Shown here: positions 1 to 12,474 of the stretch, in pieces
Numbering within the stretch: the first letter of the stretch is position 1
Layout of the letters: each line of letters opens with the position of its first letter
From: a virus
Lineage: Duplodnaviria; Heunggongvirae; Uroviricota; Caudoviricetes
Strand: one strand, 5' to 3'
Virus record (IMG/VR): IMGVR_UViG_2531839130_000013
Length of the DNA: 45,266 nt
Translations under genes and position numbers: made by a program
The notes under the pieces: generated by a model
The model's input: only the letters and a program-made list of their open reading frames with translations
The model's database searches: none
What the model was told of the DNA's origin: nothing

Positions 1-1119
1 TCAAATAACCAACTTAACCCATTCCTGACCTCGAGTATCGTTATAGCGATCGGTGGTTGCCTGGACTTTATGCCCTAGTAATGTTTTTGTATCGATACCC
101 TGTGCACGGTACAGCCGTTCTGATAGAGAGCGTTGTTCATGAAATGTTGGCGGAGTTTTTCCTGCTGGTGGAATTATCCCAGCCAGATCCCGTGCTTTGG
201 CAAAGTAGTCGCTCAGGTTGTCTTTACTCATCGGCTTCGGTTGTTTCTGGTGCCGACTATGGATTAGATATGGACTTAATATTCTGTCTCGGCACCCATC
301 AATAACTTCTTTTAACGTTATCCCAATGGCATCACAGCGTAGTGTAAGCGGTAACGCCAGACGCATTCCGGTTTTTCCCTGGGTGATATGCAAGTGTTCG
401 TTCCACACATCTGAAAAACGCATGTGGCAAATGTCATCACGGCGCTGACCAGTAACAATCGCAAGAAGCATTGCGTTACGGATAAAGTGTTTTTCAGGCG
501 TTGCATTGTAAATTTTTTGCCAGTCTTCCATGGTGAGCCTGGCTCTGGTTACTTTAGGGATCGGTTTACGGGTAGCCTCCGGAGGATTCCATCCAGGAGG
601 AACTTCCCCTGCATGCTGTGCTTCTTTATAAATATCAACCCATAATCCACGATTTACTCTCGCTGTGCTGACCATGTCTTTATCCAGCCACTCATCCAGT
701 ATTAATGCAAAGTCTCTTACTTCCAGTTCTTTCAATGGGTGGTTTCCCAGACGGGAAACCAGGTATGCAGCCATTCGAGTTTTTTCTTTGTGAGTTGTAG
801 CTGCAATATCTCCATTTTTCAGTCGCGCGTCCTGTATTTTCAGATATCGATCAACCCATGCCTTTAATCTGATGCCCCGACGTTTTGTTGCTGACGGACT
901 TTCATCAATTTTGCGCATGAAATATTCAGCTTCTGCTGCAGCTATTCGCTGATTGGCTGTGGAAGCGATTTTTTCTGCTTTGCCTTTGTCTGTTCCGAGA
1001 CCGTGAAATTTTCCAGTCACAGGGTTTTTATACTGGTAGTAAACCCTGCCAGTTCTGCGATCAAACTTTTCGTAAAGACCGGTTACGTCAGTGCTGTTTT
1101 TTCGTGGCCTCGGTGACAT
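1..1119 (-). CDS. int: Tyrosine-type site-specific integrase (lambda Int family)
   Basis: 372-aa ORF; the stop codon is the first three bases of the window (tca on +). C-terminal catalytic region with HxxR-type motif and C-terminal Tyr (TDRYNDTRG); 5' end overlaps the upstream xis-like ORF as in lambda. Confidence 0.9.
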   Translation of the reverse strand: MSPRPRKNSTDVTGLYEKFDRRTGRVYYQYKNPVTGKFHGLGTDKGKAEKIASTANQRIAAAEAEYFMRKIDESPSATKRRGIRLKAWVDRYLKIQDARLKNGDIAATTHKEKTRMAAYLVSRLGNHPLKELEVRDFALILDEWLDKDMVSTARVNRGLWVDIYKEAQHAGEVPPGWNPPEATRKPIPKVTRARLTMEDWQKIYNATPEKHFIRNAMLLAIVTGQRRDDICHMRFSDVWNEHLHITQGKTGMRLALPLTLRCDAIGITLKEVIDGCRDRILSPYLIHSRHQKQPKPMSKDNLSDYFAKARDLAGIIPPAGKTPPTFHEQRSLSERLYRAQGIDTKTLLGHKVQATTDRYNDTRGQEWVKLVI

Positions 1120-1418: not shown

Positions 1419-3890
1419 TTAAAAATCAGCCTGACTCGGGATCAGTTTTTGCCAGATAGCTGAAACGTATTTTGCCTGGTAACGAGCGTCATCAAGTGCA
1501 TTATGGCGCTCACCTTCGAATGGGATAGCAGTTCTGGCATCGAAGTCTATGGCTTTCCCCAGCTCAACGATTGTGCGTACATCGCGATCGTTGTAGTAAC
1601 GCCACGGGCAGGGGATCCCCTGCCGCTCGTATGAACGGCGCAAAATAGTGTTGTCGAAGTTGGCTCCATTTCCCCAGACCTGAACAAAAAATTCACCGGA
1701 GTTTTCGTCGATAAATTCCCGCAATTGTAACAGTGCATCATCTAACGGGATTTCATCGGTCATAATGGCAGATTGCGCTTCGCGTGATTGTTTAAGCCAC
1801 CATTTAATGGTGTCCCGATCAATGACTCCGCCAGCAGTTTCCAGATCGATAGTCTTACTAAATTCCGGTCCCATATCTCCGGTTTGCGGATCGAAAAATA
1901 TTGCACCTATTGAGATAATCGGGGCATCGGGATTTTTTCCCATGGTTTCAAGGTCGATCATCAGATGAATCCCCGCTCTGCTGGTGGATGTGAGATTATG
2001 ATGACCGTTCGCCTTAATTAAGGGATCTGACGCCTCGCCAGTTTCACTATCGCTGGCATGATGCTGATTGCCGCCAGTGTTCTCCTTGTGCTGATGCGCA
2101 GTGCCTTCCATTTCCTCCGGATCATTTTCCTGAACTTCAGGCTGATTCTCTCCATCGAATATTTCCTGGTATGTTGCGTCACCCATCACCGCACCACAAT
2201 CAGGGCAGTTGCCGCCACCGCTCTGACCGCAGGCGGTGCAGATCTTTTCCGGTTCCTGTTGCACTACTGGTTCAGGTTGTTTCGTTTCTGGCTCGTTTTG
2301 TTGCGTATTTTGGCTGTTTTGTTCCGCTTTCTGGTCGTTCTGTTCCGTTTCTTGCTGGTTCTGGTTCGCAGAATCGCGGGTCTGGATCCCCTTAACCCAT
2401 TTCGGATCATTCGGGTCGCTAATCCCTTCAACAAATTCACCACGTGATACTGCAAGCAGTTCATCGGCGTCAGGCTGGCTGATATTGGCTGCCTGCATAA
2501 TTTTGTTTACTTCGTCAGCGGTAACTTTTACCGGTTCTGGCTGTGCGGTCGTGTCAGATGCACCAGTATTTTGTTGTGAACCTGAGTATGTACTGTTTTT
2601 GCGGGCGAAATATTCTTCTTTCGTGATTTCAGTAGCCCCGGCAGCCAGCGCCTTATCCAGACCAGAAAGTTTGTTTGCGCGACCGTATTTTTCGCCATCC
2701 TTGTCGGTGAAGAGGAAGTAGAACGGCCCCTCACGCTCTACAGATGGTTCGACTTCCACTTTGCATTCGGTTTTTTCGTTGTCCGGAATTGCCGTTTCCA
2801 CTGCATCAGTTTCTGGTACTGGCGACGAGAGAGTATCAGTTGCGCTCTGATTTGTTCCTTCATCTTCAAACACGCCCTTTGTAGTCAGGTATTCAGTAAT
2901 GTATTTGTTCAGTGCCACAGGATCTTTGTGAATGTCGATCGGACGTCCACGGACAAGGCCAAAAATAGTCTGGCGGTCGTAGCGAAGGGCATCAGGCTGT
3001 TTGCGCATCGATGCCGAGATACGCTTCCAGTCTTCGCGGTCGTTGTCGATAACTTCATTTTTTGCCCAGCGATGGATGCTGCCGTCAATGTTTCCGGCAT
3101 CCACATCACCAGGCCAGAGAGCGTAGGCCAGTTCGTCATCCAGTGTTTTCCATGTCTGCTTGTATTCGCGATGAATGACTGCAGTGACAGGGGAGATATT
3201 TTCTGCTGAGTTTTCAGTGTGCTGTCGGTTGACTCTGGCGCGGGCGAGATCAACAGCAGACGTGTATTTTCCGGTTTCCTTGCGTTCACCTTCGCGACGT
3301 TTTTTCCAGATGCGCATCTCTGCCTGAATTTCGGGCCATTTAGCTCCAGGCTTACATTTATGCTTAACCCACCCGATGGCATGCAACTTAAGTTCTGGAT
3401 ACATGGCGTTAACTTCTGGCATTTTCATCAACGCTTCAACGATATGTCCGTCGAATGTTGCCATGTCTTCCTGCAACAATTCCTGCGCGCTAATCACCAT
3501 ATCAACGGTGATGTTTTCACATGTGTCGAACTTAACCATGACAGCGTTCTGTACTTCAGGGGCCAGCTTGTCAAAAGTGACGTTCATCGGATCTGATTCA
3601 GTCTCAACCGGGACAAAGGAAGCAGACTCCTCATCCCAGCGGTTTTCCTGCATATATTCAGCATCCCAGGAATCGAGGGCAGGGCGGGGTATACCGGGTT
3701 TATCCTCGCAAACAAGAAATTTATAAGCGCAGTCCTGAGCAGCCGGATAATGCTCCAGGAATTGCCAGTGAAATTTTGCGCGGGCGCGACGTTCATCACC
3801 GGCTTCAATGGCAGTGGCTACAGCGACTGCACCTTCTTCCTTTATTGCCTGTTCGTCCGGAATGGCGGCGCAAATAAAGACTTTACTCAT
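1419..3890 (-). CDS. Large exonuclease-like protein with C-terminal DnaQ-like (DEDDh) 3'-5' exonuclease domain
   Basis: 823-aa ORF. C-terminal third has exonuclease motifs (IDLET..., HNALDDARY); central part is acidic and Q/N/E-rich with a Cys4 cluster (CTACGQSGGGNCPDCG). Sits where lambdoid recombination genes lie. Confidence 0.6.
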   Translation of the reverse strand: MSKVFICAAIPDEQAIKEEGAVAVATAIEAGDERRARAKFHWQFLEHYPAAQDCAYKFLVCEDKPGIPRPALDSWDAEYMQENRWDEESASFVPVETESDPMNVTFDKLAPEVQNAVMVKFDTCENITVDMVISAQELLQEDMATFDGHIVEALMKMPEVNAMYPELKLHAIGWVKHKCKPGAKWPEIQAEMRIWKKRREGERKETGKYTSAVDLARARVNRQHTENSAENISPVTAVIHREYKQTWKTLDDELAYALWPGDVDAGNIDGSIHRWAKNEVIDNDREDWKRISASMRKQPDALRYDRQTIFGLVRGRPIDIHKDPVALNKYITEYLTTKGVFEDEGTNQSATDTLSSPVPETDAVETAIPDNEKTECKVEVEPSVEREGPFYFLFTDKDGEKYGRANKLSGLDKALAAGATEITKEEYFARKNSTYSGSQQNTGASDTTAQPEPVKVTADEVNKIMQAANISQPDADELLAVSRGEFVEGISDPNDPKWVKGIQTRDSANQNQQETEQNDQKAEQNSQNTQQNEPETKQPEPVVQQEPEKICTACGQSGGGNCPDCGAVMGDATYQEIFDGENQPEVQENDPEEMEGTAHQHKENTGGNQHHASDSETGEASDPLIKANGHHNLTSTSRAGIHLMIDLETMGKNPDAPIISIGAIFFDPQTGDMGPEFSKTIDLETAGGVIDRDTIKWWLKQSREAQSAIMTDEIPLDDALLQLREFIDENSGEFFVQVWGNGANFDNTILRRSYERQGIPCPWRYYNDRDVRTIVELGKAIDFDARTAIPFEGERHNALDDARYQAKYVSAIWQKLIPSQADF

Positions 3891-4528: not shown

Positions 4529-4586
4529 AAAAAGGGCGGCAGAGCAGTCACGGAGTAAAACTGATACCGCTAAACGCCACCAGAAA
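4529..4586 (-). ncRNA. dicF: DicF small RNA (ftsZ-targeting sRNA of Qin-type prophages)
   Basis: Reverse complement of 4534-4586 reads tttctggtggcgtttagcggtatcagttttactccgtgactgctctgccgccc, near-identical to the 53-nt DicF sequence as I recall it, followed by a U-tract on the minus strand. A perfect 9-bp stem (4612-4620 / 4640-4648) lies just upstream in transcript order. Confidence 0.7.
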
Positions 4587-6241: not shown

Positions 6242-6269
6242 AGTTTAATAAACATTAAACTTAAGTCAA
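6242..6269 (-). promoter_or_regulatory. Candidate leftward early promoter (pL-like): -35 TTGACT, 16-bp spacer, -10 TAAACT on the minus strand
   Basis: Minus-strand hexamers are identical to those of the candidate rightward promoter at 7257-7286; ACTAAAC-like operator motifs nearby (6254-6260, 6276-6282). Confidence 0.4.
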
Positions 6270-6353
6270 GTAAAAACTAAACCGCAGGGCGTAACAAACA
6301 CAACGCTTTTGATAAAGTCGTTGCGGTTGTTATGTTTCTATTGGTAGTGAAAG

Positions 6354-6633: not shown

Positions 6634-6825
6634 TTACTGCTTGCTCCGTTCCTTGCGCATTTTAGCAAAGCGTTCTGCCATTCTGCGCTCAACTTCGTCA
6701 TGGGGAATTGCTGGGCGTGGATCTGCAAGGCTCGTTGCTACTTTTGCACGCAGCCATTCGTTGTAACTGTTTTCTTGTTCAATGGTTTCAAATTCAGAAA
6801 CCATTGGTGAAAGGGCTCTATTCAT
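6634..6825 (-). CDS. Antitoxin partner of the ParE-like toxin (63 aa, PaaA-like)
   Basis: Start MNRALSPMVSEF... preceded by GGAGGA SD; small acidic/basic protein immediately upstream of the toxin with near-adjacent stop/start. Confidence 0.6.
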   Translation of the reverse strand: MNRALSPMVSEFETIEQENSYNEWLRAKVATSLADPRPAIPHDEVERRMAERFAKMRKERSKQ

Positions 6826-6845: not shown

Positions 6846-7217
6846 TCAGGCGCGGCGGCATTTTTGCGCCGCAATCCATCTCGCTATGAGATCTTCCATT
6901 GATTCTTTTTTCTGCTTTAACTCGCTGATTATCTGGCGTTGCTCATCCTCAGGGAAGGCTGAAAAAATCTGCAATAATTCCAGTTGATTAGACGTTAACC
7001 CTGCATGTGGTGGAGAAACCTCCGGTTGTTCTGCGTATTCCGCATCCAGATACCCTTCCGGCATCCCGTATGTTTGCTCTATTCTTCTGGCAGCCTTTTC
7101 TCCAAACGAGGCTCTCCCACTCATTAGTTGAGATAGGTAGCTCTTCTCTTTGGGTGGCAGAGTTTTATCTTTAAACCACTCCTTGAGACGTAAACGGCGA
7201 ATTTCTTTTTTTTGCAT
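6846..7217 (-). CDS. Phage repressor-like HTH regulator (cI/DicA/PaaR-like), probably leaderless
   Basis: HTH-like segment KSYLSQLMSGRASFGEKAARRIEQTYGMPEGYLD; C-terminal LELLQIFSAFPEDEQ resembles the DicA C-terminus. Start set at MQKK (7217) because the longer 158-aa reading runs through the divergent promoter and the cro-like start; a GATAAT -10 sits 6 nt upstream of this ATG. Confidence 0.7.
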   Translation of the reverse strand: MQKKEIRRLRLKEWFKDKTLPPKEKSYLSQLMSGRASFGEKAARRIEQTYGMPEGYLDAEYAEQPEVSPPHAGLTSNQLELLQIFSAFPEDEQRQIISELKQKKESMEDLIARWIAAQKCRRA

Positions 7218-7223
7218 GTGGTA

Positions 7224-7305
7224 ATTATCTTTAGTAATCACTAAACAAGCAAATACTTGACTTAATGGTTTATTAAACACTAAACTCTCAAAAAAAACAC
7301 TAAAC
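7224..7305. promoter_or_regulatory. Divergent promoter/operator region: leftward pRM-like promoter, rightward pR-like promoter, three CACTAAAC repeats
   Basis: Leftward -10 GATAAT (7224-7229 on +) and -35 TTGCTT (7247-7252) with 17-bp spacer; rightward -35 TTGACT 7257-7262, 18-bp spacer, -10 TAAACT 7281-7286; direct repeats CACTAAAC at 7239-7246, 7278-7285, 7298-7305. Confidence 0.45.
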
Positions 7306-7315
7306 CGAGGAAGGT

Positions 7316-7618
7316 ATGACATTAAAAGAGTTTATTAAATCATTGAGGGTTGGTGATGCTAAGAAATTCGCAGCCAGACTTGGTGTATCGCCATCTTACT
7401 TATCGCAAATGGCGTCTGGACGAGCAGCTATATCTCCAACACGCGCCCTTATGATCGAATCTGCGACGGAAGGCCAAGTAAGTAGGGCGGAGCTACGACC
7501 CCATGATTGGGAGCTTATTTGGCCTGAGTATGCGAGCGGCATTCGTTTGGGGCAAACACATGTAGTTCATGCTGAAGGTGATTGTAGTGCATGCTTATCT
7601 GATGGAGTTGATTCATGA
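7316..7618 (+). CDS. Cro-like HTH protein (YdaS-like)
   Basis: 100-aa ORF divergent from the repressor, GAGGAAGG SD; HTH-like FAARLGVSPSYLSQMASGRAAISPTRAL; position equivalent to cro. Confidence 0.65.
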   Translation: MTLKEFIKSLRVGDAKKFAARLGVSPSYLSQMASGRAAISPTRALMIESATEGQVSRAELRPHDWELIWPEYASGIRLGQTHVVHAEGDCSACLSDGVDS

Positions 7619-8040
7619 AAATCAAGCATGAACACATCCGCATGGCGATGAATGCCTGGGCGCATCCGGACGGTGAAAAAGTTCCGGCTGCGAAAATTAC
7701 CAAAGCGTATTTCGAGCTGGGAATGACGTTCCCGGAACTGTATAACGACAGCCATCCGGAAGCCCTGGCTCGCAATACTCAGAAAATTTTCCGCTGGGTG
7801 GAGAAAGACACCCCTGATGCGGTTAAAAAAATTCAGGCGTTGTTACCAGCTATCGAAAAAGCAATGCCGCCTCTGCTGGTGGCCCGAATGCGCAGCCACA
7901 GTTCAGCCTGGTTTCGGGAGCTGGTGGAGACGCGGGAACGGCTGGTGAGAGACGCTGATGATTTTGTCGCAGTGGCGATCGCTGGTTTCAACCAGATGAA
8001 TCGTGGTGGCCCTGCAGGAAATATTGTGGCTGTGCATTGA
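7615..8040 (+). CDS. YdaT-like protein (cII-position regulator / putative toxin family)
   Basis: 141-aa ORF starting MKIKHEHI..., overlapping the stop of the Cro-like gene; synteny and N-terminus resemble Rac prophage YdaT as I recall it. Confidence 0.5.
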   Translation: MKIKHEHIRMAMNAWAHPDGEKVPAAKITKAYFELGMTFPELYNDSHPEALARNTQKIFRWVEKDTPDAVKKIQALLPAIEKAMPPLLVARMRSHSSAWFRELVETRERLVRDADDFVAVAIAGFNQMNRGGPAGNIVAVH

Positions 8041-8105
8041 CTCGCAATATTCATACCGGATCACTTCCGGCAATTTGTGAGTAAAAAGATTCGGTATCAA
8101 AAGAG

Positions 8106-9152
8106 GTGAGTATGGCTAACGCCTGGCTCAGATTATGGCATGACATGCCAAACGATCCTAAGTGGCGAACAATTTCCAGGTTGTCAGGACAGCCAATCGC
8201 AACAGTGATGGCTGTGTATATCCACCTTCTGGTGAGTGCGTCACGAAATGTCACGACATGTCACGGTGTGTCACTACGTGGTCACATTGATGTCACGGCG
8301 GAAGATTTAGCAAGTGCGCTTGATGTGACGGAAGAAGTAATTGATTCAATTTTACAGGCAATGCAGGGGCGGGTACTTGATGGAGATTTGATCAGTGGAT
8401 GGGAAAAACGCCAGGTACTGAAAGAGGACAATGGCAACGTTTCACAAACCGCGAAATCCCCGGCAGAGCGCAAGAGAGCGCAGCGCGAGAGGGAAAAATT
8501 ACGAAAACAGAATGAGGGGGCGCGCGACGAGTCACGCATCTGTCACGACATGTCACGACGAGTCACGACAGATAAAGATACAGATAAAGAATTAAACCCC
8601 ACACATAACGCGCGCGTGCGAGAGAGTGCTCCTGCCAGTGAGGCAAATGGCGTGCCGTTGCAAACAGCGGAACCTGATTACCTGGAAGGCCTGAGCGAAC
8701 CCATCGGGAAATTTCCGATGACCGATGGCTGGCATCCGTCGCCGGATTTTCGACGACGGGCTGCGCTGTGGGGCGTGGCTCTTCCTGAGCCGGAATTTAC
8801 ACCAGCTGAACTTTCCGCCTTCCGGGACTACTGGGCAGCGGAGGGCAAAGTGTTCACGCAGGTTCAGTGGGAGCAGAAATTCGCCCGTCACGTAAATCAC
8901 GTCAGGGCGCAGGCTAAACCAGTCAGCAAGGGGGTAAACCATGCAGCAGCACCAGGTGGCACCGCATCACGGGCAGTTCAGGAAATTCGGGCAGCACGTG
9001 AGCAGTGGGAACGTGAAAACGGATTTATCAGCGACGGAAACGGCCTGGAAGCTGTGGGAACTCATGGGGGAGGTTTATTCGAACCGCTGGACCCAGAAGA
9101 ACGGGGCCGCACCTTCGAAGCTCTGGATTGCACAGATTGGCGCGATGACTGA
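8106..9152 (+). CDS. Replication initiation protein (O-like; YdaU/DUF1376-type N-terminus)
   Basis: 348-aa ORF with N-terminal WLRLWHDMPNDPKWRTI motif; two clusters of TGTCACG iterons lie inside the coding sequence, as the lambda ori lies inside O; immediately followed by a P-like gene. Confidence 0.65.
   Translation: MSMANAWLRLWHDMPNDPKWRTISRLSGQPIATVMAVYIHLLVSASRNVTTCHGVSLRGHIDVTAEDLASALDVTEEVIDSILQAMQGRVLDGDLISGWEKRQVLKEDNGNVSQTAKSPAERKRAQREREKLRKQNEGARDESRICHDMSRRVTTDKDTDKELNPTHNARVRESAPASEANGVPLQTAEPDYLEGLSEPIGKFPMTDGWHPSPDFRRRAALWGVALPEPEFTPAELSAFRDYWAAEGKVFTQVQWEQKFARHVNHVRAQAKPVSKGVNHAAAPGGTASRAVQEIRAAREQWERENGFISDGNGLEAVGTHGGGLFEPLDPEERGRTFEALDCTDWRDD
8239..8298. repeat. Iteron cluster 1: about six copies of (T)GTCACG at roughly 10-bp spacing
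   Basis: gcgTCACGaaaTGTCACGacaTGTCACGgtgTGTCACtacgtgGTCACattgaTGTCACG read directly from the sequence. Confidence 0.6.
8527..8564. repeat. Iteron cluster 2: four copies of GTCACG(A) followed by an A/T-rich tract (8565-8595)
   Basis: GAGTCACGcatcTGTCACGacaTGTCACGacgaGTCACGacag then gataaagatacagataaagaattaaa; iterons plus AT-rich region are ori-like. Confidence 0.55.
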
Positions 9153-9606
9153 GCAGCAAATCCGACAGGTCTGCCGCCAGTGCATGGACCGCTGCCGGGC
9201 GGGTGAAACATGGCCTCCGGACCTGGCTGAGTTTGTGGCACTGATTTCGGAGAGTGGGGCAAATCCATTTGGTCTGACGGTGGATGCTGTGATGGAGGAG
9301 TACCGTCGCTGGCGCAATGAGTCCTGGCGATACGACGGAAGCGATAAATACCCATGGACTCAGCCTGTGCTGTATCACATTTGCCTCGAGATGCGTTCAA
9401 AGGGGATTGAGCGCCAGATGACCGAAGGGGAATTAAAACGGCTTGCAGAACGGCAGCTGACGAAATGGGCAAAGCATGTTAGTAACGGCCTGAGCGTTCC
9501 GCCAGTCCGGCGACAACTGGCGGCACCCAAACGCCCGTCGGGACCAACGCCAATTGAGTTACTGAAACAGGAATATGAACGCCGGAAAGCGGCTGGGTTT
9601 GTTTGA
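8941..9606 (+). CDS. Replication protein P-like helicase loader
   Basis: C-terminal two-thirds align by eye with lambda P ([14 protein letters not shown] / [27 protein letters not shown]...[11 protein letters not shown] / YPWKSNAHYWLVTNLY...AELRRKAADEL). 5' end overlaps the initiator gene; true start may be the Met at 9064. Confidence 0.6.
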
Positions 9607-11395: not shown

Positions 11396-12082
11396 ATGAC
11401 CACAATAAATACGTTTATGACAGTTGCTGATTTCAAACGGCCTAAATTGGAGCTCCCAAACGGGGCAAACAAACTACTACTGCACTCTTGCTGTGCTCCA
11501 TGTTCCGGTGAAGTGATGGAGGCGCTTCAGGCCTCGGGAATCGACTACACCATCTTTTTCTACAACCCGAACATTCATCCTCAGAAAGAGTATTTAATTC
11601 GTAAGGATGAGAATATTCGCTTTGCTGAACAACACGGCGTGCAGTTTATCGATGCTGATTACGACACAGACAACTGGTTTGAACGTGCCAAAGGAATGGA
11701 ATGGGAGCCCGAGAGGGGGATCCGTTGTACCATGTGTTTTGACATGCGTTTTGAGCGGACAGCGTTGTACGCTGCTGAAAATGGTTTCAGTGTGATCAGC
11801 AGTTCGCTGGGCATTTCACGCTGGAAAAATATGCAGCAGGTTAACGACTGTGGGCGGCGAGCCGTCGCGCATTATCCGGGAATGGTGTACTGGGATTATA
11901 ACTGGCGCAAGCAGGGCGGCTCGTCCCGTATGATTGAAATCAGCAAGCGCGAAAAATTCTATCAGCAGGAATATTGTGGCTGTGTGTATTCTCTGCGCGA
12001 TACCAATCTACACCGCAAATCTCAGGGACGCCCTCTTATCAAAATTGGTCAACTCCACTACGGTAAAGAAGAGAAGGAGTGA
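11396..12082 (+). CDS. queH: QueH-like protein (DUF208, epoxyqueuosine reductase family)
   Basis: N-terminal [11 protein letters not shown] motif plus downstream conserved Cys (CTMCFD, YCGCV) match the signature of QueH/DUF208 as I recall it; stand-alone gene between replication genes and the hok locus. Confidence 0.6.
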
Positions 12083-12262
12083 TTTTATGGATCACCTTTC
12101 TGATTGATTTCATATTGGCGAGGTAGCAGGAGTTAAGTAGAATTGCTGCGGGTGCTTGAGGCTATCTGTCTCAGGCATGAACACCAAAAGGCAGATAGAG
12201 AAAAGCCCCAGTTAACATTACGCGTCCTGCAAGACGCTTAACATTAATCTGAGGCCATATCT

Positions 12263-12322
12263 ATGCGACACATAGAGATTAGCCTCTTACGGACCGAAAG
12301 GTCAAGGAGAAGCGGGCTATGA
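12263..12322 (+). CDS. Short leader ORF (19 codons) whose stop overlaps the hok ATG (mok-like coupling ORF)
   Basis: atgcgacacatagag... ends in TGA overlapping the hok ATG (cTATGAag); the leader region is rich in inverted repeats typical of hok mRNAs. Confidence 0.3.
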   Translation: MRHIEISLLRTERSRRSGL

Positions 12323-12474
12323 AGCAGCGAAAGGCGATGTTAATCGCCCTGATCGTCATCTGTTTAACCGTCATAGTGACGGCACTGGTAACGAGGAAAG
12401 ACCTCTGCGAGGTACGAATCCGAACCGGCCAGACGGAGGTCGCTGTCTTCACAGCTTACGAACCTGAGGAGTAA
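12319..12474 (+). CDS. hok: Hok/Gef-family type I toxin (51 aa), HokD/RelF-like
   Basis: Hand-translated: MKQRKAMLIALIVICLTVIVTALVTRKDLCEVRIRTGQTEVAVFTAYEPEE, essentially the Hok/RelF sequence; AAGGAGAAG SD upstream; below the size threshold of the ORF track. Confidence 0.85.
   Translation: MKQRKAMLIALIVICLTVIVTALVTRKDLCEVRIRTGQTEVAVFTAYEPEE

Follow-up and report, generated by a model that had tools for sequence, protein, structure and literature searches.

Do two small overlapping genes at the head of a prophage operon encode regulators of the lysogenic state, or are they a toxin and its antitoxin? The question arises in a stretch of Caudoviricetes DNA of 45,266 nucleotides (nt) (IMG/VR record IMGVR_UViG_2531839130_000013; the whole stretch is called the window here). 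An earlier reading of its sequence, hereafter the original prediction, had seen a YdaS-like helix-turn-helix (HTH) protein and an overlapping YdaT-like protein opening the rightward operon, in the cro-cII position. Two open reading frames (ORFs) lie exactly where the pair had been placed:

7316-7618, plus strand: ydaS, Cro analogue, an XRE-type HTH regulator gene and gene 1 of the rightward operon (ORF of 100 amino acids [aa], beginning MTLKEF).
7615-8040, plus strand: ydaT, CII analogue, encoding a POU-like HTH domain and, C-terminal to it, a tetramerisation helix (ORF of 141 aa, beginning MKIKHEH).

It is very probable that ydaS and ydaT form the early regulatory operon, transcribed rightward, of a lambdoid prophage with a PaaR2-type immunity region. 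The identities of the genes, their order, the cis-acting elements, and their near-identity to a locus already characterized, that of prophage CP-933P of Escherichia coli O157:H7, are plain from the data. The two genes overlap by 4 bases, ATGA, which contains both the ydaT start codon and the ydaS stop codon, and a GGAG lies 8 nt 5' of the ydaT ATG. An ATGA overlap with GGAG before the second ATG is the usual layout for coupled translation.

The original prediction had let the family assignment stand or fall by profile searches, and in the Pfam scan both proteins scored above the curated cutoffs. YdaS matched YdaS_toxin (PF15943) over residues 11-67 with 46.2 bits, where 30 are needed, and HTH_3 with 28.7 bits, where 23 are needed; YdaT matched YdaT_toxin (PF06254) with 38.7 bits against a cutoff of 21. 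In PHROGs, YdaS fell into phrog_35, "transcriptional repressor" (E-value 7e-24), and YdaT into phrog_163, "CII-like transcriptional activator" (E-value 4e-45). A PDB sequence search found YdaS to be identical in 99 of 100 residues to 8c7k_A, "Phage antirepressor protein Cro" (E-value 7e-63). YdaT matched 3c4r_A along its whole length (residues 1-141, E-value 3e-89, about 95% identity, with six substitutions over residues 2-141 in the alignment) and 8bt1_A with 84% identity (E-value 5e-79). The latter structure is the YdaT of CP-933P, and the 3c4r allele has been assigned to E. coli O6:H1 (PMC9986795). We also considered membership in the Cro families of lambda or P22, or in a CII family, and dropped it, keeping functional analogy alone: YdaS scored 15.8 bits with the lambda Cro profile PF09048 (cutoff, 32.7) and 16.6 bits with the P22 Cro profile PF14549 (cutoff, 30.2), and no CII family match was found for YdaT in Pfam at an E-value of 0.1 or below.

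The pair does sit in the cro-cII slot, as predicted. On one side is a divergent repressor gene, 98 bp upstream, and on the other, downstream, are O- and P-like replication genes. Identities in the following list refer to Sp12 of E. coli O157:H7 Sakai, which is identical to CP-933P (PMC8630535):

6354-6632, minus strand: parE2, toxin gene, 92 aa (Pfam ParE_toxin PF05016, 59.6 bits; 100% nt identity to ECs_2281).
6634-6825, minus strand: paaA2, antitoxin gene, 63 aa (Pfam PaaA2 PF21217, 69.9 bits; 98.4% nt identity to ECs_2280).
6846-7217, minus strand: paaR2, CI-analogue repressor gene, 123 aa, product beginning MQKKE (ORF; phrog_5736, E-value 2e-39; 99.5% nt identity to ECs_2279).
8106-9152, plus strand: O-like replication gene with a DnaT domain (Pfam DnaT, 65.2 bits; PHROG replication initiation protein).
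8941-9606, plus strand: lambda-P-like gene, given as the maximal ORF (Pfam Phage_lambda_P, 60.7 bits; PHROG P-like helicase loader).

The three minus-strand genes form one leftward operon, with the composition of the three-component PaaR2-PaaA2-ParE2 module. ParE2 is identical to PDB 5cw7_B in 92 of 92 residues, PaaA2 also matches the NCBIfam RelB-family antitoxin (83.1 bits), and residues 1-65 of PaaR2 are identical to PDB 7nkv_A, "Phage repressor protein CI". MQKKE is the experimentally determined N terminus of PaaR2 (PMC8630535), and the paaR2 ATG at 7217 is the published leaderless start.

The system has been described by Jurenas et al. in 2021 (PMC8630535) and Prolic-Kalinsek et al. in 2023 (PMC9986795), with structures under PDB 8c7k, 8co2, 8bt1, 7nkv, and 5cw7. 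In Sp12 the order is exonuclease, dicB, ECs_2282, parE2, paaA2, CI (paaR2), Cro (ydaS), ydaT, replication genes, and mokC/hokC. Gene order, orientation, and the ATGA overlap are the same in the window; the ParE2, YdaS-YdaT, and Hok modules follow each other in the same order, with a hok locus downstream in both. Nucleotide identity to Sp12, given above for the leftward genes, is 98.7% in ydaS (ECs_2278) and 84% in ydaT. YdaS differs from its Sp12 counterpart in one residue, which is A37 here and T37 there. As judged from these comparisons, the closest relative is CP-933P/Sp12, not Rac, and the two loci carry the same module, the PaaR2-PaaA2-ParE2/YdaS-YdaT immunity region. Differences are found toward the edges. 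The window ydaT is nearer to the PDB 3c4r allele (about 95%) and represents the same allele as 3c4r, strain PSS-15 (97%), and phage Evi (96%). No alignment to Sp12 was found after 8040; the replication module is unrelated, that of the window consisting of the DnaT-domain O and lambda-P-like genes. The integrase gene is a pseudogene in Sp12, whereas it is full length in the window. A mosaic joint is visible at 7900-8110, where the ydaT changes cluster in the last third of the gene, identity to Sp12 vanishes at the ydaT stop codon, and the other replication module follows.

If ydaS is a Cro analogue, it should share operators with the divergent repressor gene, and these are present between the two genes and again to the left of parE2:

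7218-7315, no strand: divergent promoter/operator region (OR) of 98 bp between paaR2 and ydaS (repeats, promoter scan, 98% identity to Sp12).
6242-6285, minus strand: PL/OL-like region with operator-like repeats, left of parE2 (promoter scan, TTGACT-16-TAAACT from 6269 to 6242).

The repeat CACTAAAC occurs three times in the window, at 7239, 7278, and 7298, and all three copies are in OR, with spacings of 39 and 20. Matches to the published operator half-site consensus GTTTAGTAA with at most one mismatch likewise cluster in OR, which contains palindromes at 7229-7246 and 7268-7285 and a conserved right half-site ending at 7305. Among these repeats the promoter scan placed a PR-like site on the plus strand, TTGACT (7257-7262)-18-TAAACT (7281-7286). 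The first rightward gene is ydaS, divergent from the repressor gene, with repeated operators between them for both. The PL-like site has the same two hexamers (TTGACT and TAAACT), and the operator repeats are confined to the divergent intergenic region and this site: copies of repeat family D1 are at 6247 and 6269, and the inverted repeats I1 and I3 join 6243-6272 with 7254-7278. The hexamers of PL933P are identical to those of PR933P, and this promoter is repressed by both PaaR2 and YdaS; footprints of the two proteins have been published for the 97-bp region of CP-933P (PMC8630535). OR departs from its Sp12 counterpart by one substitution at 7288 (G to T) and one extra A in the A-run at 7290, and both changes fall within the fourth repeat, in its left half, which is poorly conserved.

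The second cis element belongs to YdaT:

7608-7625, no strand: YdaT box (OM operator), TTGATTCATGAAAATCAA, spanning the ydaS stop codon (7616-7618) and the ydaT start codon (7615-7617).

The pattern TTGATT-N6-AATCAA has a single exact match in the window, at 7608-7625. No second box, such as might serve the second DNA-binding face of the tetramer, occurs in the window even with one mismatch, where 0.15 matches were expected by chance and at least one was seen in 14 of 100 shuffles. Footprints have shown the box to be the high-affinity site both for CP-933P YdaT (PMC9986795) and for Rac YdaT (PMC11879457). The identical 18-mer, including the spacer, is located at the ydaT start in Sp12, E. coli PSS-15, and phage Evi, and that of Rac is one base off. 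Because the box overlies the start of ydaT, the N terminus MKIKHEHI would be expected to stay invariant, as it does in YdaT proteins whose sequences otherwise agree at only about 34% of positions. The 135 nt around the box (7520-7654) are identical to Sp12, so the weaker flanking YdaT sites reported there are also present in the window. On the protein side, R60-W61 of the YdaT recognition helix alpha-3 is invariant across five aligned homologues. The residues described for the helix core (PMC9986795) are identical at L110, V111, F117, V118, and A121 and conservatively replaced in I103L and V114A; by this alignment the core of the tetramerisation helix is conserved.

How such a locus works has been established with proteins of CP-933P, by EMSA, footprints, and reporters (PMC8630535) and from a crystal structure of YdaT (PMC9986795). 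The message for PaaR2 is leaderless. The protein leaves a footprint of about 78 bp between the divergent genes; it is a repressor of PR and PL and, at low level, an activator of PRM (PMC8630535). YdaS footprints overlapping sites and represses PRM most and its own promoter at higher concentration, and together PaaR2 and YdaS give two heritable expression states (PMC8630535). YdaT has no effect on PR, PRM, or PL but activates an otherwise silent leftward promoter between ydaS and ydaT (PMC8630535). Its POU-like HTH domains are joined into a tetramer by a bundle of C-terminal helices, and the protein binds the inverted repeat with sub-micromolar affinity (PMC9986795).

Applied to the window, this would mean that YdaS, the Cro analogue, competes with PaaR2, the CI analogue, for the repeated operators in OR and at the PL-like site, and that this competition yields a bistable switch. 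A tetramer of YdaT, the CII analogue, would bind the TTGATT-N6-AATCAA box over its own start codon and activate a weak leftward promoter, the PRE analogue, reading back through ydaS into paaR2-paaA2-parE2, and this transcription would favor the repressor state. The real toxin-antitoxin module of the locus would be paaA2-parE2, in the position of rexAB and under the same regulators. By analogy with CP-933P, we infer that DNA binding, repression, activation, bistability, and the lack of YdaT toxicity carry over to the window copy. This transfer is supported by the identical cis sites, the single substitution in YdaS, and the conservation in YdaT of the DNA-binding domain, of R60-W61, and of the helix core.

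Several points weigh against it. Between the window YdaT and the CP-933P protein used in the experiments there are 23 differences in 141 residues, and 17 of the 23 changes are from residue 98 on, in the oligomerisation helix and tail, with 6 in the DNA-binding domain (residues 1-97). OR has a substitution and also the extra A, which makes it 98 bp long rather than 97 and puts its last two half-sites 20 instead of 19 bp apart. Strong overexpression of PaaR2 and YdaS slows growth (PMC8630535). Finally, close to the YdaT box the consensus scan turned up no sigma-70 site reading leftward. An activator-dependent promoter is expected to miss the sigma-70 consensus, and such a miss is no positive evidence. 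The best PRE-like candidate picked by eye on the minus strand, TTCATC-16-CATGCT from 7652 to 7625, has a -10 element that agrees with the consensus at only 3 of 6 positions. Since the PRE-like promoter was not located independently, it is taken here from the literature and from sequence identity.

The alternative with which we began is that YdaS-YdaT is a type II toxin-antitoxin pair, with YdaT as toxin and YdaS as antitoxin or with both toxic, and thus a third addiction module beside ParE2 and Hok. The original prediction had noted that the pair coexists with a ParE module and a Hok toxin, and this is borne out by paaA2-parE2 and by a hok locus farther downstream:

12150-12321, plus strand: Rfam sok match (105.5 bits), adjoining hok.
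12319-12474, plus strand: hok (Pfam PF01848, 82.9 bits).

The Rfam "sok" match is on hok's own plus strand, not antisense to it, and probably covers the mok/hok leader region. As Sp12 has the same ParE2 and Hok neighbors, their co-occurrence with the pair is not new.

The names point toward a toxin-antitoxin pair (YdaS_toxin and YdaT_toxin in Pfam, "toxin YdaT family protein" in RefSeq), as do the small size, overlap, and coupled translation of the two genes and a weak match of YdaS to the NCBIfam HigA antitoxin, which is below threshold (24.9 bits; cutoff, 47.7). The Rac homologues are moreover toxic when derepressed (PMC5700377, PMC5700373, PMC11879457). Set against this, YdaT binds DNA as an HTH tetramer and has a defined operator, the genes have the position of cro and cII, and the toxicity of Rac YdaT results from transcriptional activation of host rcsA, which is absent for CP-933P YdaT. 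Neither product has a known toxin fold or activity; both are HTH proteins with solved close relatives. For the CP-933P allele, moderate expression of ydaT was reported to cause no growth defect and ydaS to give no specific rescue, YdaT proved nontoxic, and the authors concluded that the two do not form a toxin-antitoxin pair (PMC8630535). PMC9986795 cites a previous test of the same hypothesis, which had not borne it out either. On the HTH fold, the gene position, and the published negative toxicity tests, we reject the toxin-antitoxin reading and give it next to no probability; by analogy with the tested proteins, YdaS-YdaT is very probably not a toxin-antitoxin system. The statement of the original prediction that the pair had been discussed both as regulators and as toxin-antitoxin-like is right in that the literature has argued both, but for the CP-933P proteins the second possibility was tested and rejected. 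Its proposal that redundancy with ParE and Hok could be tested starts from a weak premise, because a pair that is not a toxin-antitoxin system leaves no third addiction module to be redundant, and ParE2 is itself inside the operon that YdaS and YdaT regulate.

The original prediction had likened the pair to that of the Rac prophage of E. coli K-12, for which RacR, YdaS, and YdaT have been described (PMC5700373, PMC5700377, PMC5917428, PMC11879457). The likeness holds for the Pfam families, the cro-cII position, the YdaT N terminus MKIKHEHI, and the box over the ydaT start. It does not extend further: at 33-40% identity Rac is not the closest relative, and its two genes are separate. YdaS has 40% identity to the Rac protein over 58 aa (E-value 3e-9), and YdaT has 33% over 144 aligned columns by BLASTP (E-value 1e-14; 34% in the alignment). 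In Rac, ydaS and ydaT are 22 bp apart rather than overlapping, the repressors are unrelated (PaaR2 versus RacR, E-value 0.054), and no ParE module is found in the immunity region. Rac YdaT acting on the box activates a reverse promoter inside ydaS and raises racR expression, and the Rac and CP-933P proteins cross-activate via the box (PMC11879457). Rac YdaT also binds the racR-ydaS intergenic region and the host rcsA region and is toxic, whereas CP-933P YdaT does neither (PMC11879457).

This behavior of Rac YdaT raises the possibility that the window YdaT also regulates host promoters and that, once the repressor is gone, it does conditional harm. Rac YdaT has a binding site upstream of rcsA and makes cells filament (PMC11879457), the box and the R-W recognition residues are common to it and to the window protein, and the allele that was tested was another one, with 23 differences. 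However, CP-933P YdaT cannot activate rcsA (PMC11879457), and in residues 1-97 the window protein differs from CP-933P YdaT at 6 positions, compared with an identity of 33-34% to Rac YdaT. We therefore regard a host-regulating role as improbable and prefer the switch described above.

Against lambda, the comparison is one of logic rather than of family membership. In both, a small HTH protein would compete with the repressor at shared operators, as Cro does, and a tetrameric activator encoded next in the operon would turn on a leftward promoter toward the repressor gene, as CII does; the position between the repressor and O/P genes is also the same. YdaS and YdaT lie outside the lambda Cro and CII families, and the fold of YdaT is POU-like (PMC9986795). 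The operator layout has four spaced repeats here, not three, and the repressor is without a RecA-dependent cleavage domain. Pfam found no peptidase family (S24 domain) in PaaR2, so induction would not use the RecA-cleavage route.

Could the pair be an inert relic, with intact frames in a decaying prophage and no current regulatory role? Its best-studied copy does sit in a cryptic prophage, and a regulator of YdaT stability, a CIII analogue, is not known in the literature. Yet relative to Sp12 the ratio of nonsynonymous to synonymous change per site (pN/pS) is 0.10 in ydaS and 0.22 in ydaT, the substitutions being mainly synonymous, and by this measure purifying selection acts on the two genes. 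None of the cis sites is damaged, the copy in CP-933P works in vivo (PMC8630535), and the phage record Evi carries the same region. The window, moreover, encodes a full-length integrase and what looks like a full set of late genes. Among its landmarks at the left end are the following:

1-1119, minus strand: integrase (full-length ORF with Arm DNA-binding and catalytic domains).
1419-3890, minus strand: exonuclease.

Long rightward ORFs fill the right-hand 27 kb (17000-44300), and the late genes look complete. From its gene content the window as a whole reads as a lambdoid prophage, which may be complete, unlike the cryptic CP-933P/Sp12. We consider the relic reading very improbable and favor a working regulatory operon.

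We investigated the distribution of the region in 5,426 complete E. coli genomes. The block from parE2 to ydaS is present in 590 of them at a coverage of at least 80%, about one in nine, and it is at least 99% identical in 566 of the 633 matching genomes. Some part of 6300-8100 matches 3,262 genomes, in up to 7 places per genome. The immunity region is also shared with Escherichia phage Evi (97.1%). Positions 1-24000 as one block were found in no complete E. coli genome, the best having 72% coverage at 94% identity, which suggests that the source prophage combines known modules in a new mosaic.

The box and the DNA-reading residues are common to very different immunity types (Rac, CP-933P, and the window prophage), and ydaT varies in its oligomerisation helix and tail, the part that holds the mosaic joint of the window. 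Stationary-phase bistability has been reported for the CP-933P region. One might speculate that YdaT is a common signal among co-resident lambdoid prophages, such that the CII analogue of one activates the repressor-establishment promoter of another and divergent C-terminal helices block mixing of tetramers. Cross-talk and stationary-phase bistability, not the SOS response, would then set lysogeny and induction here. We think this unlikely.

The pair is already known, as are its structures, operators, and regulatory logic, from a locus with 98-100% identity over the stretch from parE2 through ydaS. The finding is therefore correct but ordinary, and it matters little as a discovery. It is of use for annotation, as the label "toxin YdaT/YdaS" of Pfam and RefSeq misleads for proteins of this type, and Cro-like and CII-like regulators of the PaaR2-type immunity region would be better names. 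Work on the CP-933P switch has to date been confined to a cryptic prophage and to plasmids, and an apparently complete prophage would allow a switch of this type to be studied in a real lysis-lysogeny decision.

Some minor features of the window are also of note. The O-like ORF shares 212 nt with the maximal P-like ORF, which is read in another frame, and phrog_15931, with 482 positions, matches both, the former at profile positions 1-347 and the latter at 281-482; in related E. coli prophages RefSeq annotates two separate O-like and P-like genes. A homologue of QueH-type epoxyqueuosine reductase (PF02677, 220.9 bits) is encoded at 11396-12082 in the early-right region, just 5' of hok. In the leftward early region, the antisense small RNA DicF (Rfam RF00039, 68.6 bits) is located at 4534-4585 on the minus strand, as in prophages of the Qin/Sp12 type. 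Two tRNA genes lie within 16957-17203 on the plus strand (Rfam tRNA, 72.5 and 70.1 bits); Sp12 has three tRNA genes beside the gene of the late regulator Q, and positions 16919-17395 of the window align there at 85.7%.

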